DNA of 64,000 nt, from positions 32,001 to 96,000 of the forward strand of contig CAWKHF010000006.1 in assembly GCA_963849325.1 (NCBI GenBank), read 5' to 3'. Below are positions 29,780-50,918 of this stretch, piece after piece. Each line of letters begins with the position of its first letter. Position 1 is the stretch's first letter. The notes under the pieces are model-generated. The model was given only the letters and a program-made list of their open reading frames with translations, was not told the origin of the DNA and searched no databases. The DNA is from an uncultured Planctomycetota bacterium. GTDB taxonomy: Bacteria > Planctomycetota > Planctomycetia > Gemmatales > Gemmataceae. The translations under genes and the position numbers were made by a program.

Positions 29780-32241
29780 ATGGACATGCTGCGAAAGTCT
29801 GGTATCGGAATGGCGGTCCTTTCCGTCATGGTCACCGTGTCCTCCGCAAGGACGGAACCCCCGTCGGCGCAGGCGCGCTCCGCCCTCGCTCCCGTGGCCG
29901 ACAAGAACGACGAGCAGACGCTGCACGAGGCCGGTCTGTCCAGCGATGGCGCCGCTCTCCTTGCCTACTTCCACGCGCGCGCACGCACCGACATCGAACC
30001 GGACCACCTCCGCATCCTGCTCCGCCAGTTCGCCGCTCCTTCCAACCGCGAGCGCAGCTTGGCCACGGCCGAATTTCTCGGCCTGGGTCCGCTCGCCGTG
30101 CCCGTCCTGCGCCGCGCCGCCAACGACCTCAACGAGCCGGAGGTCGCCCGCCGCGCGGCCCACTGCCTGCGCTGGCTGGAAGGTCCGCCGGCCTCGACGC
30201 TGCCGGCCGCCGCCGCCCGCGTCCTGGCCCAACGCCAGCCCGAAGGCGGCGCCGCGGCGCTGCTGGACTACCTGCCGTTCGCCGACAATGCCGAAGTGCT
30301 GCGGGCCGTCACCGCCGCTCTCGCCGCCGTCGCCGCTCCCCACGGCAAGCCGGAGCCGTCGCTGCTGCGCGGCCTGAACGATCCGATCGCCGTTCGCCGT
30401 GCCGCCGCCGGCGTCGCCCTGTGCCGCGTCAATCCGCCTGACCAGATCCCCGCCGTCCGCCATCTCCTCCAAGATCCAGCTCCGGGCGTGCGTCTGCGCG
30501 CCGCTCTGGCCCTGGCGGAGTCCCACGACGCCGAAGCCATCCCGATACTTATTGAACTGCTGGCGGATTTGCCCATCGAGCCGCGGCATCGCGTTGAGGA
30601 GTTTCTGACGCAGTTGGCCGGCGAATGGGCGCCGGCCGCCCACTTCCAGGGCGAGGACGAGATCGCCCGCAAGATCCGCCGCGACGCCTGGGCCGCCTGG
30701 TGGCGCAACACCGACGGCGACGCTCTGCTGGCCGCCATCCGCAAACGGACGCGGACGACCGAGGACCGCGACAAGATCCGCGGCCTGCTCGCCAAGCTCG
30801 GCTCGGAGGACTTCGCTTCGCGGGAAGCGGCGACGACGGAACTGTTCGCCCTGGGTCGCCGCAGTTTGCCGCAGCTGCGCGAAGCGGCCCAAAGCAAGGA
30901 TGCCGAGATAGCGCACCGGGCCAGGGAGTTGACGGAGCGCATCGAGCAGGAGCCGAGCCATCGTCTGCCGGCGGCGGCGATCCGTCTGCTGGCCATGCGC
31001 AAGCCGGCCGGCTCGGTCGGAGCGCTCCTGGCCTACCTGCCCTTCGCCGAGGACGAGAACCTTGTCGCCGAGGTACAGAAGTCGCTGACCGCCCTGGCCC
31101 GGCGCGACGGCAAGCTCGACCCGATGCTGGTGCGGACCCTGGCGGACCCTCAGCCGCATGCTGCGGGCGACGGCGGCGGAGGCGTTGGCCAAGGGCGGCG
31201 GCGCCGACGGCCGCGACGCCGCCCGCAAGCTGCTCAAGGACGCGACGCCCACCGTCCGCCTGCGCACCGCCCTCGCCTTGGCGATGGTCAAGGACGGCGA
31301 AGGCGTTCCGGTATTGATCGACCTGCTCACCGTCCTGTCGGCCGACCACGTGGGGCAGGCCGAGGACGCTCTGTACCAGCTGGCCGGCGACACGGCCCCG
31401 GAAGTGTCGCTGGGCACCGAGGCGGCCGAGAAAAAGAAGTGCCGCGATGCCTGGGCCGCCTGGTGGAAAGTCAACGCCGCCCGCGTCGATCTGGGCCGGC
31501 TAACGTCGCGCGTCTGGCTGGGCTACACGCTGCTGTGCGATTGCAGCAACAACCGCGTCTACGAGGTCAACCGCGACGGCAAACAGCGCTGGTCCATCAA
31601 CAACGTCCCCTTCCCCGTGGACGCCTGGGTGCTGCCGGGCAATCGCGTCCTCATCGCCGAGTACAACGGCCGGCAGCATCACCGAGCGCGATTTCAAGGG
31701 CAAGGTGTTCTGGTCCAAGGAAGGTCTGCCCAGCCAGCCGGTCAACGTGCAGCGGCTGCGCAGCGGCAACACCTTCATCGCCACCGATTCGCAGCTTGTG
31801 GAGGTGGACCGCACCGGCAAGGAAGTGTACGCGATCCACAACGTGCCCGGCGGCATCACCGCCGCCTATCGGCGCGCAACGGCAACATCGTCTGTTCTGA
31901 CCCAGAACGGCCAGTGCGTGCTCATGGACACGACCGGCAAGCAGCTCAAGAGCTTCGCGTCCAACCGGCAAGCCGGTTGGACCAGCGGCATCGACCTGCT
32001 GGCCAACGGCCACATCCTCATCACCCAGCCGGATCGCAACAAGGTGGCGGAGTACGACCGCCAAGGGAAATTGATCGTGGAAGTGGATGCGCCGATGGCG
32101 ACGACGGCGACGGGCCTGCCCAACGGCCACTTCCTGGTGGCCAGTCACCAGGGCCAGCGCGCCTTCGAGGTGGACCGCGCCGGCAAGGTCGTCTGGGAGT
32201 ACAAGGGGGGCGGCAACATTTTCCGGGCGCGGCGGCGCTGA
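29780..32241 (+). CDS. Secreted HEAT-repeat plus beta-propeller protein, paralogue 3 (frameshifts near 31155 and 31670)
   Basis: ORFs 29780, 31158 and 31705 join colinearly with paralogue 2; ends FRARRR. Confidence 0.85.
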
Positions 32242-33546: not shown

Positions 33547-34983
33547 TCAGCGCCGGCGATTCTTGTGCGTCTTCTTCGGCCGCGGCGTGGCCTCTTCTCG
33601 ACCGAGAAGGATGCCCTGTTCCTGTAGTTTGCGGCGGTCGGCATCGCCGAGGGCGGCGCGGGCGAACGCCACGGTCGTCTCGTTGAGCTTTTCCGCTTGC
33701 CGGCCGAGGGCGGCGAGGACGCGGTCAGCGGCAGTCGCATCGGGACAGCGCAGCACCGTGGCCGGCTCGACCGACACCGTGCGCACCCAGCCAGCCCACT
33801 CGCGCACTTCATGAGCCACGTTGCCCGGCAGCGGCGTGCTGCTGTGGCGCTGCAAGCGGTCGAGCATCTCCGCGCCGCTCAGGCCGGCCGTGACCGCCTT
33901 CACGACCGAGGCGCGGGTGATGCGCAGCGTCACGGCGCCGCCGCCGCTGCGCTCCTTGATGCGCTCGCAGAACGGGGCCAGCTCGGCGAGCGGTGCCAGG
34001 TCCATGCCGATGACGACGACGCTGAAATCCGGCTGCACGACGACGCGCGTGGCGACAGCGGGAGACGGCGGCGTTTCCTCGGCCGAGGGTTGCCGGCCGA
34101 AATACGTGTCCAGCCGCGGCCGCCGCGCGATCAGCAGCTCGCCGTCGGCGCCGCAGCCGGCTTGCAGACAGCCCAGCGACACCAGGCGATTGCTCACCAG
34201 CTGGCCCAGCAGGTGGCGGGCCGCCTCGTGCAGCTGTTCCTCCAGGGGAGCCAGCAAGCGGCCGGACAGGCGCACCTGCACTTCCTCCGGCTTGCGTCCC
34301 AGCAACAGCGGATTGTGCGGGCCGAAAGCGGCGTGAGCGATGAAGTCATCCAGCCGGAAAAAGATACCGACCGGCAGTTCGCGGAAGGCGGCGAACAGCG
34401 CCTCGCGCAGGGGCTGTCGCTGTCCGGGCGTCAGCGGAGAAGGACGATCGCTGCCGTGCCCGGCCCTCACGGGCAAGGCAACGATCGAGGCACCCAGGAA
34501 GAGGCCGTCATCGTAGTAGTGGCTCCAGTAGGGGAGCAATTCGTCCGGCCGCTCCACGTCGCGCAGCGATTCGTACAGGAAGGCGTATTGCTCCTCGATC
34601 CGCCGCGCCAGCCAGCGCCGTCCGGTCGCGCTCAGGTCGAGCCAGCGATGATCGCCCTCTTTCTTCTCCGTTGTTAGTTGCAACCGTTTGGCCCAGTGCA
34701 GGGCGATCTCCAGGCGACGCTCCGGCGTCAGGTTGTACGTGTCCGTCAGCCAGCCGGGCAGCGGCTCCAGGACGGACGTGAATCGCTCCGTCTCTTTCTG
34801 GAACAGGCTGCGGTCCTGGCGCAGACGGGCGCGGCCGCCGGCCAACTCCAGCAGGACGGCGCGGAGGTCGGGGACATCGGTGCCGCCCTCCGGTCCCGGC
34901 TCCAGCGGCGGCGCACACGACTCCAGAGGCGGACGCTGGACGGGACGGCCGGCCTGTTCGCGGCCCCACCAGTTGTACAGCAT
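33547..34983 (-). CDS. Helicase_C_3 (XPB-N/p52-clutch-like) domain protein
   Basis: VVVQPDFSVVV...LAPFCE...LRITRASVVKAVTAGLSGAEMLDRLQRHSSTPLPGNVAHEVREW; no helicase motifs. Confidence 0.8.
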   Translation of the reverse strand: MLYNWWGREQAGRPVQRPPLESCAPPLEPGPEGGTDVPDLRAVLLELAGGRARLRQDRSLFQKETERFTSVLEPLPGWLTDTYNLTPERRLEIALHWAKRLQLTTEKKEGDHRWLDLSATGRRWLARRIEEQYAFLYESLRDVERPDELLPYWSHYYDDGLFLGASIVALPVRAGHGSDRPSPLTPGQRQPLREALFAAFRELPVGIFFRLDDFIAHAAFGPHNPLLLGRKPEEVQVRLSGRLLAPLEEQLHEAARHLLGQLVSNRLVSLGCLQAGCGADGELLIARRPRLDTYFGRQPSAEETPPSPAVATRVVVQPDFSVVVIGMDLAPLAELAPFCERIKERSGGGAVTLRITRASVVKAVTAGLSGAEMLDRLQRHSSTPLPGNVAHEVREWAGWVRTVSVEPATVLRCPDATAADRVLAALGRQAEKLNETTVAFARAALGDADRRKLQEQGILLGREEATPRPKKTHKNRRR

Positions 34984-35884: not shown

Positions 35885-35971
35885 TTTGGCGAAGAACTCA
35901 GAACTGATTTTTGTGAACTACACTTGCGGCAGGCAGAGTCGCCATTCCCCGCGATCCCGGGAAGATACTCC

Positions 35972-37438
35972 ATGCTCGGCCGTGTGTTCATGGGACGGTA
36001 TGAGACCATCCGCCTGCTCGGCGAAGGCGGGATGGGCCGGGTTTACCTGGCTCGTCAGCTCGACCTGGGACGGCAGGTGGTGGTCAAGGTCATGCACGAC
36101 CACATCGCCGCCGACCCCAAGTTCCGCGAGCGCTTCACGCGCGAAACGCTGCTGATGGCCCGCTTCCAGCACCCCTACGCCGTCACGCTTTACGATGCCT
36201 CGCTGAACGACCCGCAAGGCCCGTGCATCGTCATGGAGTACATTCGCGGCGTCACCCTCGACCAGCTACTGCAAAGCAACGGCCGGCTCACGCCGGCTCG
36301 CGTCGGCCGGCTGCTGTACCAGCTGTGCGAGGTGCTGCAAGCCGCTCATGGCCTGGGCATCATCCACCGCGACCTGAAGCCGGCCAACCTGATGATCGTC
36401 GATCCGGACACGCCCTACGAGATGCTCAAGGTCATGGACTTCGGCCTGGCCAAGATGCTGACGCCGGACCAGTTCGCCAAGATCACGCAGACGCACACCG
36501 AGTTCGCCGTCGGCACGCCCGGCTACATGTGTCCCGAGCAGGCGCGCGGCGACGAGATGGACGGCCGCGGCGATTTGTACAGCGTCGGCGTCATCCTCTA
36601 CGAGCTGCTGACCGGCCGGCTGCCGTTCGCCGGCTGTTCGACGATGGACCTGCTGTTGGCCCACGTGACCGAGGAGCCGCCGCCGTTTTCGTTCTCGGCC
36701 GCCGACGTCGAGGTGTCACCCGGCATCGAGGACGTGGTGCGGATGTGCCTGTCCAAAAGCGCGGAGGATCGACCGCGCTGCGCCCGTGAACTGGCCGAGC
36801 GTTTCGAGCAGGCCCTGACCTGCGAGAGGACCGCCGCCGTCCCGCCGCCCGCCGTGGCCCCCTCGGCGCGGTTGCGGTCGGCGACCGGCGCTCCGCCGGT
36901 CGCCGACCGGACCAGTGTCTCGCCGATCCATCCGAAGACCGAACCTCGGCCGGCCCATCTGGACCGCACGGTCCAGGTGCCGGTCCCATCTCCGCCGCCC
37001 GTCGAGGAGGCGGCCGACGACCGCGAGCCACAGGATCCGTTCGCCGTCGTCCACCGTCTGGAAGCGTGGATGCCCGAGAGCATCGCCACCTACAAGCTGC
37101 GCGGCTTCATCCACGATGTCGGCGGCGAGATGATCGAGAGTGTGCCCGGCCGCATCCATGTCCGCGTCGGCGGCAAGGGCAGCAGCTACGCGGCGCCGCG
37201 CCAGGGTCTGTCCTGGCTGGGCCTGGGTCGCCGCGGCGGCCCGATCGACATGGAGCTGTACCTCGACCACGCCGACGCCGACCGCCAAAATCAACTCCGC
37301 ATCACCGTCATCTTCCGCTCGTCCGGCACCGATCTCAACGCCAGCCCCGCCTGGCGCAACGTCTGCACGCACATCTTCTGCGACCTGCGCGGCTATCTCA
37401 TGGGACAGACCGGCACCGTCCACACCGTCGCCGAGTGA
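35972..37438 (+). CDS. Ser/Thr protein kinase (Hanks type), cytoplasmic
   Basis: LGEGGMGRVY, VVVK, HRDLKPAN, DFGLAK, GTPGYMCPE, DLYSVG. Confidence 0.95.
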   Translation: MLGRVFMGRYETIRLLGEGGMGRVYLARQLDLGRQVVVKVMHDHIAADPKFRERFTRETLLMARFQHPYAVTLYDASLNDPQGPCIVMEYIRGVTLDQLLQSNGRLTPARVGRLLYQLCEVLQAAHGLGIIHRDLKPANLMIVDPDTPYEMLKVMDFGLAKMLTPDQFAKITQTHTEFAVGTPGYMCPEQARGDEMDGRGDLYSVGVILYELLTGRLPFAGCSTMDLLLAHVTEEPPPFSFSAADVEVSPGIEDVVRMCLSKSAEDRPRCARELAERFEQALTCERTAAVPPPAVAPSARLRSATGAPPVADRTSVSPIHPKTEPRPAHLDRTVQVPVPSPPPVEEAADDREPQDPFAVVHRLEAWMPESIATYKLRGFIHDVGGEMIESVPGRIHVRVGGKGSSYAAPRQGLSWLGLGRRGGPIDMELYLDHADADRQNQLRITVIFRSSGTDLNASPAWRNVCTHIFCDLRGYLMGQTGTVHTVAE

Positions 37439-42619: not shown

Positions 42620-43225
42620 TCACGGCAGCAAGTCCCCGACTGGGATGGTCGCCACCGCCGCTCCGTCCAGTGTCAATGGGATGTCATCGCCGAGGCGCCG
42701 ATCCTGCCGCTGGGCATAGGCCGGTGTCGCCGTGGGGCCGGAGGGATCTGTGTAAACCTCCACCTGGTGATCGACGAGATTGACGATCCAGTAATAAGGT
42801 ATACTGGCCCGCGCGTAGATGCGTCCCTTATCCGCGCGGTCGCCAGCCAGCGTCGTATCGGCCACCTCGATCACCACGCCGACATCCGAGGGGCCCGGAT
42901 GGCGCGAGGAGTAGCTGCGGGCGTTTCCTCGGACGATCGCGCCGTCCGGTTCCGGTTCGCTTCCGCCCAGTGTGACGGCGGACTGCATTCGCAAGCACCA
43001 GCCCCCGGGCAGCAATCGCGGCAATGTATCCTGAATGAGCTGCAAAGCCGCGTCGTGGGGGGGATTGCGAGACATCTTGTGTACCAGATAGCCTTCCAGC
43101 AGTTCGAGATTGTCGTCCTCCGTGAGGATGCCGATCTCGATCAGCTTGTGATACTCGGCCACGCTGAAGCGGTGAAATCCGGCCATGGTGCCCTGCCAGG
43201 GTAGAGAAATCGTTTGCGTTGTCAT
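42620..43225 (-). CDS. Uma2/DUF820 family endonuclease-like protein
   Basis: HRFSVAEY, LELLEG, EPEPD, VIEVAD, K..IYA, YWIVNL. Confidence 0.9.
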   Translation of the reverse strand: MTTQTISLPWQGTMAGFHRFSVAEYHKLIEIGILTEDDNLELLEGYLVHKMSRNPPHDAALQLIQDTLPRLLPGGWCLRMQSAVTLGGSEPEPDGAIVRGNARSYSSRHPGPSDVGVVIEVADTTLAGDRADKGRIYARASIPYYWIVNLVDHQVEVYTDPSGPTATPAYAQRQDRRLGDDIPLTLDGAAVATIPVGDLLP

Positions 43226-43449
43226 GGCTCCCTCCGCGCTGGTTCGCCGCCTGTTGTACCACGCCGCCAGCGCCGGCCGCAACCGAAGTCCTCGTTCTCC
43301 TATTCGGCTGCGGTCACAACCATGCGGATGGGCCGTAAGATAGGCAGGGGAGAAGGCGGCTCGCGGGTTGACCGCGGACTGAACTCCCCTCGCCGTCACG
43401 GCCGGCGAAGAGAACAACCGCCTTTCAACCCTTCTCGGAGGCCCCGTCC

Positions 43450-44310
43450 ATGTTGCACTCGCTATCCGCCTCGAAGTATGAGTTGCTGTCGCGCGCCGCC
43501 GTCTACTTGCGTCTGCCCTCGTCTCCGCATCGGTCGCCGGAAGTGCTGGCGGACGGCACGGGTCTGCGCTGCCCGCTCTCCGGCCGGGAGTATCCTGTTC
43601 GCAATGGCGTTCTCGACCTGATCGGACAAGAGCCGAACTTGACGGTCAGCCAGAAAGCGCTCAATACCCGCGCGGCGGCGTGGCTGTACGATCGGTTGCG
43701 CTCGACGGCCCTGCTTCGGCTGCTCGGGATTCCGAGCTTCGCCGTCGAGATCGCTTCCATCCAGCGGAAGCAGCGCATCGTGCCGGGTGACGTGGTCCTC
43801 GACCTGGCCTGCGGGCACGGCAATTTCACCGCCGAACTGGCGCGGCGAGTGGCCCCAAGCGGACTGGTACTCGGCATGGATCTCTCTCCGGCCATGCTGG
43901 CACGGGCGGCGGCGCGGGTCCGGCAGCGGCGGCTGGACAACGTCCTGCTGGTGCGCGGCGACGCCCTGAACCTGCCGCTGGCCGACACCTGCTTGGCCAA
44001 GATCAATTGCTCGGGCGGCTTCCACCAGTTCCCCGACCTGCCCCGCGCCCTGGCCGAGATCGCCCGCGTCAGCCGCCCCGGCGCGACGCTGACGGCCTCG
44101 ACGTTCGCGGCGGGTCCGCCCGAAGCCAACGTCTCCTTTCACGCCCGCGCCCACGCACGGTTCAAGAACTGGCTCCATCGCCGCTACCAATGCCATTTCC
44201 TCTCGCTGGTCCGGCTGGGCGAACAGCTGGCGGCGGTGGGTTATGGCGAGTATCAATGGTCGCTGCCGGGCGGATGGTTTGGATACACCTCGGCCCGGTT
44301 CGTCTCGTGA
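43450..44310 (+). CDS. SAM-dependent methyltransferase
   Basis: VLDLACGHG, GMDLS, RGDALNLP, ALAEIARVSRPG. Confidence 0.88.
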   Translation: MLHSLSASKYELLSRAAVYLRLPSSPHRSPEVLADGTGLRCPLSGREYPVRNGVLDLIGQEPNLTVSQKALNTRAAAWLYDRLRSTALLRLLGIPSFAVEIASIQRKQRIVPGDVVLDLACGHGNFTAELARRVAPSGLVLGMDLSPAMLARAAARVRQRRLDNVLLVRGDALNLPLADTCLAKINCSGGFHQFPDLPRALAEIARVSRPGATLTASTFAAGPPEANVSFHARAHARFKNWLHRRYQCHFLSLVRLGEQLAAVGYGEYQWSLPGGWFGYTSARFVS

Positions 44311-44358
44311 AAGATCCCCAAGCGGAGCCGCAGGGACCGGCTTCGTCTTTTTTCGCCC

Positions 44359-44700
44359 TTATTCGGAAGACGACGCCATGTTCCGCTCGGCCTTTTGTCG
44401 CCTTTTTTCCTCAATCCATTGCTGAGCCGCTCTCACCTGATCCACGGCCGGGGGCAATCCCGCGATGGAGCGCATGCAGGACGGATCATAGCGATGAGCG
44501 AAATCCAACATCTCCTCGAGTATCTCCTCGGGGAGATGGCTCAGAACGAGGTCCGGATGGTCCGGGTCAAGCATATGCAGGCAATCCATCATGACTTGAT
44601 ACCCCGTTATCGCGCCATCCCGATACATCTCGATCAGCTCGTCTACCATCCCATATCTCATCTCATTCTGGCCACTAATCGTTGCTTTACCTCCAATCAT
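44359..44700 (-). CDS. Hypothetical protein, last in the XPB gene run
   Basis: RBS GAGGTG before ATG 44700; MIGGK...MVDELIEMYRDG...; lower GC than flanks. Confidence 0.55.
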   Translation of the reverse strand: MIGGKATISGQNEMRYGMVDELIEMYRDGAITGYQVMMDCLHMLDPDHPDLVLSHLPEEILEEMLDFAHRYDPSCMRSIAGLPPAVDQVRAAQQWIEEKRRQKAERNMASSSE

Positions 44701-44762
44701 GCTCACCTCAGACTCACAACACCATTGACAGCCTCCGGTGTTGCCGAACGACCATTTTACGT

Positions 44763-46932
44763 CTACTCCAGCGCGATCCCAGCGTCGTGCAACCGTTGAC
44801 GCAACGTCTCCGCGTTCTCCTCGGCGACCACCAGCGCCGTCGGCCCCAGTCGCTCCGCGATCAGCTCGCGCGTCTGCGGCCACTGCATCAGGCCGTCGGC
44901 CAATTCCGCCGTGGCAACGTGCAGCACCAGATGCCGCCGCAGACGCGGCGGCTCCCCCTGTCCCGCCGTCAGCAGCAGCCGCGCCGCCGCCGGCAGCGGC
45001 TGGCCGGCACGCTGCCCGAACCACGTCTCCAGCGACGGCAGCGTCATCCCCGCCGCACGTCCCGCCAACAGCGAGGCCGGCGTCAGCCGGTATTGGCGCC
45101 GGCCGTTGGCCGTCGTGCCGCCGACCAGCTCGGCGAAGCGCGGCAGCTCCGTCTCCAGCAGCAGGTCCGAACGCGCCAGGTCCACCGACAGCGTCACGCC
45201 GTCCGGCTCGACGTGGACGCACTTCTCCGGCGGCAGGGCGTAATCGCGCGTGCCGGTCAGGCGGAAGTGGCGGAACTCGATGGCCTCCTCGCTGGCGACC
45301 ACGGCCAGCGTGTCGGCGAGGCGGACGGCCGGCAGGCCGCGCGCCAGCGCCTCGTTCAGGTCGTCGGCGCTGCCGAACTCCAGCAGCGTCGCCGACGGAT
45401 AGACCGTGATGCGATCGCGCTTGTTCGCCCAGGTCCGCAGCGAATCGAGCACGGCCGGCGGCACGCCGCGCGTGCCGTGCTGCTCCAGGGTCAGGCGGAT
45501 GCTGTCGAACGTCTGGCCCGCCTCCAGGGCGCGGTAGACCGTCTCCGGCTGCAGTTGCAGCGTGCAGGCGGCGCCGAGGTTCTCCCAGGCGGCGAACTGC
45601 GTCAGCCGGGCGATCAGGCCGCTCGTCAATCCCTGGCGATAGGCGAGGATCTCCAGGTTCGGCTGCACCAGCAGCGTCTGCGTGTGTACCGCCTCCAGGG
45701 CCGGCGCCTCGCCCAGTCCCAGCAGCCAGCGGCCCGGTCGGCGACAGTCGCACGCGCCACGCACCCTCGTCGCCGCGCACGGCCTGCACCAGCCGCAGAT
45801 GGTAGGCCACGCCGAGCAGGAACGTCTCCAGCCACGGCTTCTGCCGCGACGGCCGCAGCGATTCGCTCGTCCAGTACGGATGCTGCTCGAAGAGCCACGC
45901 TTCCACCGTCTCCGGCCGCACCCAGCCGTCTTCCGGCAGGCGCGCCAGCAGCAGGAAGGCGAGCAGGTACGCCGACGGGAACGGGTTGCCGGGCGGCGTC
46001 TCGCCGCCGCGCCAGCCGTCCAGCGGGTTCCAGGTGGACAGCCGCGGCAGATCGACCCACAGCGATTCCAGCGCCGCCGTCAGTACCCTTGTCCCACGCC
46101 GGCGGCAGTGGCCCGGCACGCAGCTCGCCCTCGACGTCCTCGACCATGCCTTCCAGCTCGGCCAGCGCGATGGCCAGGAAAGCCGAGGTCCGGCACGTCC
46201 GCCAGGCGCTCCGCCGGCGGGGCGTTGAGCAGAGGGTCTTGCTGGAGCCGCTCGAGGTCGCGCTTGAAGAAGCCGCCCTGCTGCGTCCGCCGCAGCGGCG
46301 CGCCGGCCACCTGCTGCCACAGCACCGCCAGACGCAGCAGCCATTCCAGCCCGTCCGCTTCCTGAGGGCGAACGGCCGGCGTCAGCCGGCCGACGCCGGC
46401 CGTTCGCTCGCTCTCGGAGAGATCGGGCAAGCCGAGGTCTTCGCCGATGGCGCGGACGGCGATCGGCGGCGGCGTGAACACCGCAAGCCCGCCGGTCCCG
46501 GCGCCGCCAGCCATTGCTCGAAACTCTTGATCTTACGGCTCGTCCCGCCGTTGCGTCCCGGCTCGCCCTCGGCGCCGTGCAGGCGCGGATAGAGCAAGCC
46601 CGCCTCCAGCAGGTCGAACACGGGTTGCAGGCCGTCGGTCTGTCCCAGCGCGATCGCCATCTCGACGAGGTTGCCGAGGTTCCAGCACGGTTGCCGGCTG
46701 TGGCCGATCAGCGCCAGCACCTGGCGGGCGGCCGGCGTCAGGTCTTGCAAGCGGCGGTCGAGGACGACGGGATTGGACGGGACGGCGACGCCGCGGTCGA
46801 TCAGTTCCTCGACCGGCCACTGGTTGCGCGGCTTGACGAGCGTGCGGCCACCTGACGCAGCAGCGCCTCGTCGTAGCACGCCAGCGTCTGCCGCTGTAAG
46901 TCGGACCAGAAGGCAGGATCGACAACAGGCAT
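44763..46932 (-). CDS. Large protein with two Helicase_C_3 (p52-clutch-like) domains (several frameshifts)
   Basis: Joined from frames 46382, 46080, 44359 and 44763; LLVQPNLEILAY...PETVYRALEAG...VPPAVLDSLRTW and a second copy YRLTPASLLAG..AG...QPLP. Confidence 0.8.
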
Positions 46933-46978
46933 CTCATGTTCGTCCGTCGTAGGGTGGACCGAGCTTGCGCGGCCCACC

Positions 46979-47224
46979 TTACTGACTGCGGACTTGCGGC
47001 GTGTGTCCCATCTTCTGCAGTTCCTGGACCACGGCCTCGACGCGGCCCGGCCGGATGAGCAGGACGCGATCGGTCAGCCGGCCGACGATGTCCTGAGCCA
47101 GTTTCTTGCGGGCCAGCAGTTCCTCGGCCAGCACGGCGTCCTCGGTCTGCACCAGGCAGACGCGGCGGTGCAGCTTGACCGGGATGCGAGCGCCCGCCGC
47201 AGGGCGAACCGGATCGTTCAGCAT
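46979..47224 (-). CDS. Small protein homologous to the C-terminal domain of the Helicase_C_3 proteins (p8/Tfb5-like?)
   Basis: RRVCLVQTEDAVLAEELL...IVGRLTDRVLLIRPGRVEAVVQELQKMG aligns by eye to RRHLVLHVATAELADGLM...IAERLGPTALVVAEENAETLRQRLHDAG. Confidence 0.7.
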   Translation of the reverse strand: MLNDPVRPAAGARIPVKLHRRVCLVQTEDAVLAEELLARKKLAQDIVGRLTDRVLLIRPGRVEAVVQELQKMGHTPQVRSQ

Positions 47225-47252
47225 CAGGGAGTTTTCCTCTTTCAACACTCAT

Positions 47253-47352
47253 TGAAAAGTGAAAAGTGAAAAATAAAAAGTGAAAATTGTCCGGATGAAC
47301 AACATCCGCCGTTCATTTTTCACTTTTTAATTTTTATTTTTCACTTTTCCAT
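47253..47352. repeat. Inverted heptamer array (TGAAAAG)n ... (TTTTCAC)n
   Basis: AT-rich degenerate heptamers on both arms, just downstream of the XPB stop codon. Confidence 0.8.
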
Positions 47353-47359
47353 TTCTTCT

Positions 47360-49132
47360 TCACCCTGCGGCGCGTGCTTCCTCCAGCATCTCCGCGCCGT
47401 CGACGATCTGATAGCTGTAGCCCTGCTCGGTCAGGAACAGCTGCCGATGGTGGGCGAAGTCCTGTTCGCGGGTATCGCGGCTGACCAGCGTGTAAAAGTG
47501 GGCCACCTCGCCGCCGCTCTTGGGCCGAAGGATGCGGCCCAGCCGCTGCGCTTCTTCCTGGCGCGAGCCGAACGTGCCCGACACCTGGATCAGCACGTTG
47601 GCGTCGGGCAGGTCGAGGGCGAAGTTGCCGACCTTCGACAGGATCAGCGAACGGACCTCGCCGTGGCGGAACTTGTTGTACAGCTCCTCGCGCTCGCTGT
47701 TGCTGGTCTGCCCGGTGATGAGCGGGATGTTGAAGCGCTTGCGCAGCTGGCGCAGCTGCTTGAGATACTGGCCGATGATGAGCACGCGGCTGTCCGCGAT
47801 AGCGATCGAGCAGACAGGCGACGACGTCGTCCTTGGCCGGGTTCTCGCTGGCGATGCGGTACTTGTTGCGCCACTCGGCGACGGCGTACTCCATGCGCAG
47901 CGGCTCGGGCATGGCGACGCGCACCTCGGCGCAGGTCGCCTCGGCGATCCAGCCTTTCGTCTCCAGCTCGCGCCAGGGCACGTCGTACTTCTTCGGGCCG
48001 ATGAGGCTGAAGACGTCGGCCTCACGGCCATCCTCGCGCACCAGCGTGGCCGTCAGGCCAAGCCGCCGCCGCGCCTGGATGTGGGCCGTGACGCGGAACA
48101 CCGGCGCCGGCAGCAGATGGACCTCGTCGTAGATGATGAGGCCCCAGTCGCGCTGGTCGAACAGGCGAAAGTGCGGAAATTCCTCGCTCTTGTCCGGCCG
48201 ATAGGTGAGGATCTGGTAGGTGGCCAGCGTGACGGGGCCGATGTCCTTGGTCTCGCCGGTGTACTCGGCGACCTGGTCCTCGGCGAGGTCGGTCTTGTCG
48301 AGGATCTCGCGGTGCCACTGCTTGACGGCGGTGATGCCGGTGGTCAGCACGAGGGTGGAGCGCTGCATCAGCGGCCATGGCGGCGATGCCGACGATGGTC
48401 TTGCCGGCGCCGCAGGGCAGCACGATGACGCCGCTGCCGCCGCGCACGTCGCCGCCGGCGTAGAAGATGTCGGCCGCGTCGCGCTGGTAATCGCGGACGT
48501 GAAACGGCAGACCGCTGCGGGCGAGGGTGCGCAGGTGGATCGGCAGGGCGGCGCCTTCGGTGTAGCCGGCCAGGTCCTCGGCCGGATAGCCGACGGCGAT
48601 GAGCGCCTGCTTGAGCACGCCGCGATGGCCGGGGTCGATGAGGAAGCTGGTAGCGTCGAGCCGTTCGCCGAGGTAATCGCGCACCTCGCGGCTGCCGGGC
48701 CAACTCCTCCAGCAGCGGCCCGTCCTCGCAGACCAGCCGCAAGGCGGACAGCGCCCCTCCTCTCTCGTCTCCTCTGGAGGCAGAGGGGCACGTTCGAGCT
48801 TGACGCGGCCGTAGCGGCTGACCAGCTCGGCGATGTCGGGGGCGAGGTTGGACGGCAGAGGGAACTTGCTGTAGCGGCGCAGCACGTCGAGCATGGCCGT
48901 CGGCGCTCATGCCGGCGGCGGCGGCGTTCCACAGCGACAGCGGCGTCAGGCGATAGGTATGGATGTGTTCGGGACTTTTCTCCAGCTCGGCGAAGGGAGC
49001 CAGGGCGTCGCGGGCCTCGGCGTAGCGGGGGTTATCGACCTCGACCAGGACGGAGCGGTCGCCCTGGACGATGAGAGGGTTGCTGGGGTCGTAATGGTGC
49101 TCAACGCCTCGGGGCGTCCCTGACTTTTGCAC
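47360..49132 (-). CDS. xpb: XPB/Rad25/Ssl2-family SF2 helicase (several frameshifts)
   Basis: N-terminal PLIVQGDRSVLVE...FAELEKSPEHIHTYRLTPLSLWNA; RDYQ, LPCGAGKT, DEVH, GLTATLVRED (RED motif), SRQEEAQRLGRILR. Confidence 0.93.
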
Positions 49133-49248
49133 AGCCTTCCCCTCCCCCGCTCCCGTCAAGGTCCGACGGAGCGCCAAAAAGCGCATCGTAGTGGGTTCGG
49201 ACAGGCCACGCAAGGCGAGATGACGGGCGACTCGGAAGGGAGCGCGGC

Positions 49249-49500
49249 TCAGTAACCCGCGCGGACTTGCTGGCGTTCTTCCAGCAACTCCGAGGCGCGG
49301 TAAACGGAGCGGCGCAGCAGGCCGACGATGCTCCAGCCGCTCAACATGCCGAGTACGAACGTGGCACCCACCACCAGAGGGATGCTCTTGGTAACGTGCC
49401 AGTTAAGAAAGGTCACGGTCACGTCGTGCTGGTTCTGGTAGATAAAGACACCGACGGCCCCGGCGAACACCACCAGGAAAAGGAAGCACAAGAAACGCAT
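49249..49500 (-). CDS. LapA/DUF1049-like small membrane protein
   Basis: TM-QN...V.V.FL.W...P-TM pattern; RBS GAGGGAGG. Confidence 0.7.
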   Translation of the reverse strand: MRFLCFLFLVVFAGAVGVFIYQNQHDVTVTFLNWHVTKSIPLVVGATFVLGMLSGWSIVGLLRRSVYRASELLEERQQVRAGY

Positions 49501-49683
49501 GGGAAGACCCTCCCTCGGTACGGCCCGGAGTAACCCTCCAGGTCCGATAGGGAGATGAGCAAATGGTGCGCCGATGAGGAGCGACGGACGGCCGCGCCTT
49601 CTGCCTCGGGGCGGAGGGCCGATTGGCACGGTCCATGCGTCCTTGTTTCGCCTGCATCGCCCCAGCCAAGCTAAGGGACCGAC

Positions 49684-50248
49684 GTGAGCAAACGAGTCCA
49701 GCGATCGACGCCGGCCGTGCTGACCGTCGGTCATTCGTCGCGGTCGCGGGAAGATTTCCTGGAATTACTTCGCGCCGATGAGGTAGGCCAGGTGATCGAC
49801 GTGCGCAAGATGCCGGGTTCGACGGCCCATCCGCATTTCAACGAGGAGGCGCTGTCGGCCGCCCTGGCCGAAGCCGGCATCGGCTACGTCCACGTCCCGG
49901 CCCTCGGCGGCCTGCGTCGGCCGCGCGTCGATTCGCCCAACGGCGGCTGGCGCAACCGCTCCTTTCAGGGCTATGCCGATTACATGCAGACGGAGGATTT
50001 CGAGGCGGGACTGCAAGCGGTGATCGAGGCGGCACGACGGCGGCGCGTGGCGCTGATGCTGCGCCGAGGCGGTGCCGTGGCGCTGCCATCGCTCGCTGAT
50101 CGCCGACGCCCTCGTGGCTCGCGGCATCCCGGTCGAGCACATCCTGAGTGCCACCCGTCGGCAGCCGCATACGCTGCGACCGTTCGCCCACGTCCACGGA
50201 ACGCACGTCACCTATCCACCCGAAGCCGGCGCGTCCGCATCCGAATGA
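49684..50248 (+). CDS. DUF488 family protein (frameshift near 50060)
   Basis: LTVGHSSRS, IDVR..PGS..HPHFN, LGGLR, YADYM, then C.EAVPWRCHRSLIAD. Confidence 0.88.
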
Positions 50249-50577
50249 CCGTCGGGCCGCGTGAGGGACTCCAGACCTCGGCGAACCTCTTCCGGCTCGG
50301 GCCGAGCCAGCTGCATCACCACCTGACCGTCGCGCAGGAAGACGAGGTTCGGCCAGAGCTTGACGCGGAAGGAACGCCCCAGCGGCCGACCCTTGCCGTC
50401 CTCGACCTTGATGTGACGGACCTCGGGGAAATCCGCCAACAGCGTTTCCAGCGGTCGCTGAAGCGCCTGGCAGTAACCGCACCAGCCGGTGCCGAATTCG
50501 AGCAGGACCGGCCCACTCAGGCGGTCGATCTCGTCGCGGGTCGGTTCCGGCTTGCTGTAGTCGTTGTCGAAGGACAT
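50212..50577 (-). CDS. Thioredoxin-family protein
   Basis: EFGTGWCGYC; FRVKLWPNLVF. Confidence 0.88.
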   Translation of the reverse strand: MSFDNDYSKPEPTRDEIDRLSGPVLLEFGTGWCGYCQALQRPLETLLADFPEVRHIKVEDGKGRPLGRSFRVKLWPNLVFLRDGQVVMQLARPEPEEVRRGLESLTRPDGHSDADAPASGG

Positions 50578-50618
50578 GGTATCACCTCGCCGAGAAAGGG
50601 ACTGCGGCCCCTTTCTCG

Positions 50619-50918
50619 TTATTCTTCGCTTGCTCCGGGGCGGCGAGGAGCGTAGCGAGCCCTCAATACATAGACGATGCGCTCTTCCGGGTGGACCTCG
50701 AAAGTAACCGTGAGAGGCGCAACAATTAGGACGCGCTCGAAATCGCCTCGCGATTCGCCACGGGTCTCGGGATCGGCCGCGAGAGTTCGGTCGATTTCTG
50801 TCATGGCCGTTGTGAGGGCCGAAACATCCTCACCCCGTTGCATGGCGGCCAGCACGAGAGAGGCTAACGTCTTCTCGATCAGCGATCGCTTCCAGATGAC
50901 CGTGTAGGGCTTGTTCAT
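50619..50918 (-). CDS. Putative RelE/ParE-like toxin
   Basis: YTVIW...IDRTLAADP..RGESR...RVLIVAPLTVTFEV...RIVYVL; ATGA-coupled to the upstream small ORF. Confidence 0.55.
   Translation of the reverse strand: MNKPYTVIWKRSLIEKTLASLVLAAMQRGEDVSALTTAMTEIDRTLAADPETRGESRGDFERVLIVAPLTVTFEVHPEERIVYVLRARYAPRRPGASEE

Follow-up and report, generated by a model that had tools for sequence, protein, structure and literature searches.

The 64,000-nucleotide window analysed here, positions 32,001–96,000 of contig CAWKHF010000006.1 in the assembly of a soil planctomycete (8.16 Mb, 14 contigs, completeness rating 84.7%), contains three tandem minus-strand genes at 49132–44763 that encode an XPB helicase, a protein of 81 amino acids (aa) and a protein of about 720 codons. 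We propose that this operon is probably the bacterial counterpart of the XPB–p52–p8 translocase sub-module of TFIIH; the claim covers that sub-module only and not a "TFIIH core". In TFIIH, a eukaryotic factor for transcription and repair, p52 and p8 hold the DNA-opening motor XPB and activate it. The large protein is a relative of p52 (Tfb2 in yeast) in both sequence and fold over nearly the full length of p52. The small protein, whose structural model has the fold of p8 (Tfb5 in yeast), is predicted to dock on the large protein's equivalent of the p52 C-terminal domain (CTD), where p8 sits on p52. Both likenesses rest on fold and profile evidence and not on membership in the corresponding Pfam families.

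An initial annotation, made from the letters of the window, had described three co-oriented genes at this locus (XPB, an 81-aa open reading frame (ORF) and a large gene), and both the ORF calls and tblastn searches with intact relatives bear this arrangement out. The genes lie as follows:

47360–49132, minus strand: gene for an XPB (ERCC3/Rad25-type) helicase, likely start GTG at 49105 or GTG at 49132, stop at 47362–47360, in four frame segments
46979–47224, minus strand: gene for the p8/Tfb5-like small protein, 81 aa, intact; an alternative GTG at 47248 would give 89 codons
44763–46932, minus strand: gene for the p52/Tfb2-like large protein, about 720 codons, start ATG at 46932, in five or six frame segments

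The gaps between the genes measure 135 nt (XPB to small gene) and 46 nt (small to large gene). A promoter and terminator scan of 44200–49800 gave no terminator-like site on the operon strand inside the three genes and zero promoter-like sites, and its terminator-like sites (4 vs 2.5 expected) stayed at chance level. The XPB gene and the large gene are split between reading frames in this assembly, as discussed below, and the intact orthologues of a relative (genome G006, locus L014; XPB 573 aa, small protein 81 aa, large protein 731 aa) were used as stand-ins.

Judged by its sequence, the helicase is a true XPB. With the XPB proteins of intact relatives as tblastn queries, its coding pieces were located at 49096–47363 in four frame segments, which score 325.5, 231.7, 151.6 and 87.1 bits on the NCBIfam equivalog model NF045503 ("DNA repair helicase XPB", cut-off 610), on which an intact orthologue from the same genus reaches 867.1 bits. 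The pieces match the Pfam families Helicase_C_3, ResIII and ERCC3_RAD25_C, and the stand-in protein has Helicase_C_3 at residues 9–142, followed by ResIII and ERCC3_RAD25_C. The Helicase_C_3 (PF13625) match of the local N-terminal domain (NTD) falls in two frames (positions 1–56, 72.5 bits; positions 56–92, 30.7 bits). Motifs I, II, III and VI of superfamily 2 (SF2) helicases are all encoded at the locus together with the RED motif, which had already been assigned to this helicase at the outset and was found again in the string TATLVRED:

48790–49075, minus strand: XPB NTD (Helicase_C_3), interrupted near 48897 by an indel of 1 bp
48411–48397, minus strand: Walker A motif GAGKT, from a motif search
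48128–48117, minus strand: DEVH motif, from a motif search
48030–48038, minus strand: RED motif, directly after motif III (TAT), the whole string TATLVRED lying at 48053–48030
47548–47525, minus strand: motif VI QRLGRILR, from a motif search

The large gene is covered by tblastn matches of two intact relatives (731 and 739 aa) over 46932–44769. Its product is annotated publicly as a "hypothetical protein", and Helicase_C_3 is its sole match in Pfam, NCBIfam and PADLOC. A Helicase_C_3 neighbour was also presumed by the initial annotation for the mycobacterial XPB Rv0861c. The family is large: a search with its profile through 1.84 billion representative proteins returned 4234 members at E ≤ 0.001, of which 2020 still passed E ≤ 1e-10 and 481 passed E ≤ 1e-30. 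When a profile of 104 members was compared with the PDB, the best natural matches were yeast Tfb2 (E 1.6e-4, over Tfb2 residues 337–467) and human p52/GTF2H4 (E 1.6e-3, query 405–496 aligned with p52 306–403), followed by p52 of C. thermophilum (E 0.011), with XPB chains at E ~1 only; a profile of 14 sequences gave the same result. The human alignment covers the p52 "clutch", which the available text of Greber et al. (PMC6422496) places at residues 306–399, and the alignment with Tfb2 includes the LPPxVxDxxRxW segment to which the initial annotation had pointed. Matches of this profile to de novo TIM barrels in the PDB (E 7.5e-5) were due to a repeated stretch of 26 residues, no stretch of which passes alone, and were disregarded.

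The fold gives the same answer over a longer span. The AlphaFold2 model of the large protein of the relative (mean pLDDT 92.2, pTM 0.79) had 27 Foldseek matches in the PDB at E ≤ 0.001, all of them TFIIH p52/Tfb2 or XPB chains; p52/Tfb2 chains took ranks 1–19, 22 and 26 (E from 1.6e-8, 350–597 alignment columns, or 350–574 for ranks 1–19) and XPB chains the other six. With VIA-align, model residues 89–561 were aligned with residues 31–459 of human p52 (9pd3_D; Z 14.8, 292 aligned residues, 19% identity) and model residues 57–561 with residues 105–493 of C. thermophilum p52, so that the p52 succession of NTD, middle domains, clutch and CTD is matched co-linearly across nearly the whole p52 chain. 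The p52 motif put forward in the initial annotation was reproduced by a computed profile alignment over the clutch, and the proposal of a p52/Tfb2-like protein held up in the profile search, in Foldseek and in VIA-align. The domains of the large protein that bear on this comparison are, in model residues of the stand-in:

45417–45689, minus strand: unit 1, clutch-like and XPB-NTD-like domain (residues 416–506)
45252–45407, minus strand: alpha/beta module after unit 1 (residues ~510–561), which corresponds to the p52 CTD and on which the small protein is predicted to dock
44957–45227, minus strand: unit 2, a second XPB-NTD-like domain (residues ~570–660), without counterpart in eukaryotic p52
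44778–44948, minus strand: C-terminal alpha/beta module (residues 663–719), nearest in sequence to the small protein

Unit 1 reaches 45 bits on PF13625 in a genome search (45674–45342) and 69.8 bits on a piece of 333 aa (cut-off 34.2), and it superposes on residues 71–163 of the human XPB NTD with a VIA-align Z of 15.7 (root-mean-square deviation (rmsd) 1.7 Å, 91 aligned residues). Unit 2 scores 28.6 bits at 45158–44850, under the Pfam cut-off; profile positions 582–708 of the large family match XPB NTDs, and the two units form an internal repeat (427–535 with 580–692; hhalign 89.5%, E 2e-6). In the model both units end in a beta-alpha-beta-beta-alpha module, and that of unit 2, its last 57 residues, superposes on Tfb5 (3dom_B) with 56 of 58 residues aligned (VIA-align Z 6.5, rmsd 2.2 Å). 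The two Helicase_C_3-like units that had been read from the sequence, each with a small alpha/beta domain behind it, are present, and hhalign supports them as a repeat. Their correspondence to p52 needs to be divided: the whole-chain alignments stop at model residues 559–561 (p52 457–459), and p52 with its clutch and CTD corresponds to unit 1 and its module within residues ~80–561, with unit 2 as an extra.

The small gene differs from those of three relatives by 14, 22 and 32 synonymous and 4, 3 and 9 non-synonymous codon changes, respectively, mostly at third codon positions, and its product has homologues in 2377 clusters at 90% identity, all unnamed; this synonymous excess and the many homologous clusters mark it as a real gene under purifying selection. 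In the ESM Atlas the protein led only to unnamed planctomycete clusters and, weakly (0.80), to a Helicase_C_3 cluster, and it matched no NCBIfam or PADLOC family. At the level of sequence, the small protein is the terminal alpha/beta module of the large protein in a separate, free-standing copy. It aligns with that module at an hhalign probability of 94.7% (E 6.3e-8), whereas the comparison with the module after unit 1 was not significant (1.7%), so that the initial view of the ORF as a copy of the small domain stands for the C-terminal module and not for the other. A hidden Markov model (HMM) of the small protein also matches a p52-like protein of another family at its C-terminus (E 1.5e-9) and, more weakly, XPB NTDs in their C-terminal part.

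The AlphaFold2 model of the small protein (pLDDT 79.7) has the order beta-alpha-beta-beta-alpha, which is that of p8, with strands at 23–26, 46–49 and 54–57 and helices at 30–43 and 62–71. The first four Foldseek ranks are all yeast Tfb5 (probability 0.99, TM-score normalised to the target 0.63–0.69, rmsd 2.6–2.8 Å, 30–32% identity), as the initial annotation had anticipated for a structural match to p8, and human p8 is listed at ranks 41 and 47. A Foldseek-independent search also gave p8 of C. thermophilum (Z 5.5) and the Tfb2 CTD (Z 5.0), and in a profile comparison with the PDB Tfb5 was listed along its whole length, at E 0.7–1.2 only.

A complex of the small protein with residues 395–731 of the large protein, both given as alignments, was predicted in three runs and compared with three controls. 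The runs reached ipSAE values of 0.81, 0.79 and 0.82, the best control 0.00; the mark applied is reached by 58/80 solved complexes and by 2/110 mismatched pairs, counts that hold only roughly here as our own alignments were used. At least 90% of the contacts are shared between the three runs, with a partner pLDDT of at least 79. The predicted interface covers residues 505–566 of the large protein, i.e., the module after unit 1, where strand 516–520 would pair with residues 16–19 of the small protein and strand 509–512 with residues 25–27. A pairing of the small domains, as first suggested, is thus predicted, at the module after unit 1 and not at the C-terminal module, to which the small protein is closest in sequence.

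Among 69 Gemmatales loci, collected via one narrow peptide pattern of the small protein that returned only Gemmatales-type records, 58 keep the order XPB, small gene, large gene. Of the 69 loci, 60 contain XPB and 65 contain the large gene, and contig ends truncate at least three of the 11 incomplete ones. The conservation of the small ORF beside xpb that the initial annotation had asked about is therefore borne out within this set. In distant planctomycete families, seven of ten fetched loci keep the three-gene order, with small proteins only 25–33% identical. One relative (G026, protein P0145; L022:2036-4516, minus strand) has the small gene joined to the 5' end of the large gene in a fusion of 826 aa; its cluster at 90% identity holds 32 members from separate metagenome contigs, and 12 of the 15 members listed have the same length of 826 aa. 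In genome G013 the small and large genes are still neighbours, although XPB is 2 Mb distant.

Among 301 genomes sampled from across the phylum and compared by hand, 141 contained XPB and 135 a p52-like protein; 132 had both, nine XPB only and three the p52-like protein only, counts to which no statistic is attached as kin are not independent; one genome counted as XPB-only (G101) has the large gene by HMM search. Of the 40 genomes at the top of the match list, 36 have the XPB and p52-like matches on one contig within ~3.5 kb. One genome (G330) has two separate pairs of XPB and p52-like genes (G330:C6:44820-48968 and G330:C145:2847-6581).

Several results weigh against a bacterial XPB–p52–p8 module. 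The Pfam models Tfb2 and Tfb2_C (which we take to be PF03849 and PF18307) found no match at E ≤ 10 in three full-length members of the large family, and the small protein matched no Pfam family at E ≤ 0.1 (local copy) or at E ≤ 10 (relative), including the Tfb5 model, presumably PF06331. The proteins are for this reason called p52-like and p8-like here and are not filed as members of those families. The Foldseek E-values of the small protein to Tfb5 (0.066–0.11) miss the line of 0.001, and in the Foldseek-independent search Tfb5 ranked seventh (Z 6.2), tied with generic ferredoxin-like folds, so that the fold of the small protein alone is not distinctive. Whole-chain TM-scores of the large protein to p52 are low (0.15–0.33, rmsd 13–19 Å), which we attribute to a different arrangement of the domains, and residues ~570–731 form an additional XPB-NTD-like unit that p52 is without. 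The success of the complex prediction may reflect the memory of the model or mere likeness, since the Tfb5–Tfb2C complex is already solved. In three relatives (G013, G027 and G030) XPB and the large gene are not linked. The model of the small protein matches only 14 of the 301 sampled planctomycete genomes, and among 20 further XPB/p52-like loci outside Gemmatales (L122–L141) the two genes abut or overlap without a small ORF in 17; of the remaining three, two have a clear small ORF and one a weak one. Where the small ORF is absent, the module after unit 1 may perhaps be paired in cis by the C-terminal module. The three-part form is accordingly better described as a lineage-restricted elaboration of a common two-gene pair.

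By analogy with TFIIH, the proposed module might work as follows. With its first strands, the small protein would extend the beta-sheet of the module that follows the clutch-like unit, as in the predicted complex. The clutch-like unit or units would grip the NTD of XPB as a pseudo-symmetric pair, and the paired small modules would rest on the second RecA lobe (RecA2) and the thumb, if the arrangement resembles that in the available accounts of TFIIH (PMC6422496, PMC7708078). As described there in part for TFIIH, the partners may set the rate of ATP hydrolysis and double-strand DNA translocation by XPB, both raising and capping the ATPase. For p52 and p8 of C. thermophilum, a stepwise stimulation is reported. 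The module may then act in some DNA-opening task; repair appears the most likely one, in view of the role of XPB elsewhere and of the housekeeping-like distribution of the genes.

The ancestry of the small gene is a separate matter from this mechanism. A real possibility, although we lean away from it, is that the terminal module was duplicated independently within this lineage to give the small gene, which would then be a parallel to p8 and not its orthologue, the operon working like XPB–p52–p8 by convergence only. Its closest detectable relative is indeed the bacterial C-terminal module (E 6.3e-8) and not Tfb5 (E ~1), and its distribution is patchy, with 14/301 genomes and absence from 17/20 two-gene loci. 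Set against this are the structure-based identity of 30–32% to yeast Tfb5, compared with at most 20% for the other folds listed, and the predicted docking at the place where p8 docks and not on the small protein's own closest relative. This duplication concerns ancestry only and is compatible with the mechanism favoured above. Rather more doubtful is a bacterial origin of the whole, in which the XPB–p52–p8 module pre-dates eukaryotes as a bacterial operon, the small protein is the orthologue of p8/TTDA, and the p52 CTD and p8 both stem from tandem modules. If true, bacterial XPB would be inactive or mis-regulated alone, which would explain its weak activity in vitro.

A different account of the mechanism, which we regard as unlikely, takes the large protein to be a paralogue of the XPB NTD with winged-helix domains added, binding DNA or acting as a regulator in the vicinity of XPB but not clamping it, and the small protein to be a generic dimerisation module; the likeness to p52 would then come from shared old domains and not from a shared mechanism. 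That Pfam sees Helicase_C_3 only, that the match of unit 1 to p52 is no better than its match to XPB NTDs (Z 15.7), that the middle domains match winged helices of the PadR and forkhead types (Z 7–8.5), and that three relatives have XPB apart from the large gene would all fit this account, as would the shorter p52-like paralogue at 33547–34983, which has no XPB neighbour. The domain order, however, is that of p52, and the alignments span residues 31–459 of the 462 of human p52 and residues 105–493 of the C. thermophilum chain, while p52 chains outrank XPB chains in both the Foldseek and the HMM searches. The co-occurrence with XPB is moreover near-perfect (132 of 144 carriers), with the matches within ~3.5 kb of each other in 36/40 first-listed genomes.

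The broken frames of the XPB gene and the large gene are read as assembly errors, and the operon is expected to be intact in the organism. Alignment of the DNA with two relatives from the same genus placed 1-bp indels near 48897, 48750 (two), 48685, 48372 and 47799, and further ones near 46840, 46482, 46180, 46085 and 45733, i.e., about ten in 4.2 kb for the two genes together, the small gene being intact. That the two genes are instead decaying pseudogenes in the source organism is very improbable. The number of frameshifts, beside two intact neighbouring genes (1.1 and 0.9 kb), would fit decay, but the changes are 1-bp indels only, the frame segments contain no internal stops, and the C-terminal segment of the large gene is 87% identical to its relatives at the protein level. 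In the same assembly, the essential genes rpoB (G000:C1:334967-338611) and one copy of gyrA (G000:C14:48379-50982) are broken in the same manner, into four and eight frame pieces, respectively, and the completeness rating is just 84.7% in spite of the 14 contigs. Two other few-contig assemblies of the genus (G002 and G007) also have split frames in the large gene, while in many-contig assemblies of relatives it is open over 730–780 codons and the genes of short-read relatives are intact. We read the frameshifts as assembly errors because rpoB and gyrA are split alike and the genes of the relatives are intact; with single-base indel errors this frequent across the assembly, its broken genes are not to be taken for pseudogenes. 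Among public reads, no run contained more than 0.10 of the sampled words of 44700–49200, and the indels were judged from the relatives and from rpoB and gyrA; a scan of the window for frame switches by GC content at third codon positions (GC3) was too noisy for counting frameshifts.

That the operon serves in anti-phage defence, or is some other accessory system centred on an XPB-like helicase, is scarcely credible, for although the XPB core gives partial PADLOC matches (PbeA, 62.7 bits, and HmaA), PADLOC has no match for the small or the large protein, XPB and the large gene are present in 35/41 (over the cut-off) and 36/41 relatives, respectively, the small protein is 66–96% identical in 10 of 11 aligned relatives across the order (44% and 32% in the two most distant), and no mobile-element genes were seen beside the operon, whose flanking genes vary.

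The surroundings of the operon contain several other genes. A LapA-like ORF (49249–49734) and an ORF of 113 aa (44359–44700) flank it directly; neither adjoins the operon in any other fetched locus, and both are for this reason not counted as members. An ORF of the putative restriction-endonuclease-like Uma2 family lies on the same strand 1.3 kb downstream (42620–43417, minus strand) and is not conserved there in other loci. A DUF488 gene occupies 49684–50655 on the plus strand; its domain covers only residues 23–126 of an open frame of 323 codons, and the long tail is for that reason probably another frameshift artefact. The second, shorter p52-like paralogue of the window (33547–34983, minus strand) is an open frame of 478 aa with one Helicase_C_3 unit (53.6 bits, residues 314–425) and no XPB adjoining. 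Its region is flanked by genes for a HEAT-repeat protein (29780–31900, plus strand) and a Ser/Thr protein kinase (35924–37438, plus strand), and relatives also carry a p52-like paralogue, of ~700–840 aa by weak matches.

The role of XPB in bacteria is still described as elusive in the available text of a 2026 study (PMC13024598), which also states that archaea are without a TFIIH-like assembly. A search of the full-text literature, with subscription journals and supplementary files outside its reach, turned up no account of p52 or p8 homologues in bacteria. The results presented here suggest that the three-part XPB–p52–p8 module is not only eukaryotic. A widespread p52-like family is tightly coupled to XPB, which would argue for studying bacterial XPB together with its partners and not alone, and some lineages add a p8-like third subunit to the XPB/p52-like pair. 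The operon bears on the origin of the TFIIH translocase module, and it could serve as a small model for the tuning of XPB by p52 and by p8, the trichothiodystrophy group A (TTD-A) protein.

Among prokaryotic systems, the archaeal XPB–Bax1 helicase–nuclease pair, so far as it is described in the available text of PMC13024598, is alike in that a prokaryotic XPB stands beside a dedicated modulating partner. Bax1 is a nuclease that, according to the same text, binds the thumb motif and helicase domain 2 (HD2), whereas the planctomycete partner is p52-like and, by analogy, should bind the NTD. No Pfam nuclease domain was found in either partner or in the ORFs flanking the operon, the non-conserved Uma2-family ORF lying 1.3 kb away. 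The mycobacterial XPB Rv0861c (PMC3353954), as far as its published account was available, is likewise bacterial and belongs to the same short type of XPB; the available parts of that account deal with no partner protein.

The closest comparison is with the eukaryotic XPB–p52–p8 (Ssl2–Tfb2–Tfb5) module, for which solved structures (PDB 6NMI, 6TRS and 3DOM) and partly available descriptions (PMC6422496, PMC7708078) serve as reference. The planctomycete version differs in being bacterial and encoded in one operon, in a large protein that is ~270 residues longer than p52 and ends in a second XPB-NTD-like unit, and in partners that the Pfam Tfb2 and Tfb5 models do not recognise. Unlike in TFIIH, the small subunit is absent from most planctomycete versions of the XPB/p52-like pair. 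No sign of XPD, p44, p34, p62 or the kinase module was found within the operon, the rest of the genome not having been searched for these. What the two systems have in common is an XPB with an NTD of the Helicase_C_3 type, as in the eukaryotic module so far as it is described in those sources; a p52-like protein with the same succession of domains, from helical and winged-helix domains at the N-terminus through a clutch that has the XPB-NTD fold to a small alpha/beta module; and a tiny partner with the fold of p8, predicted to pair with the module that resembles the p52 CTD.

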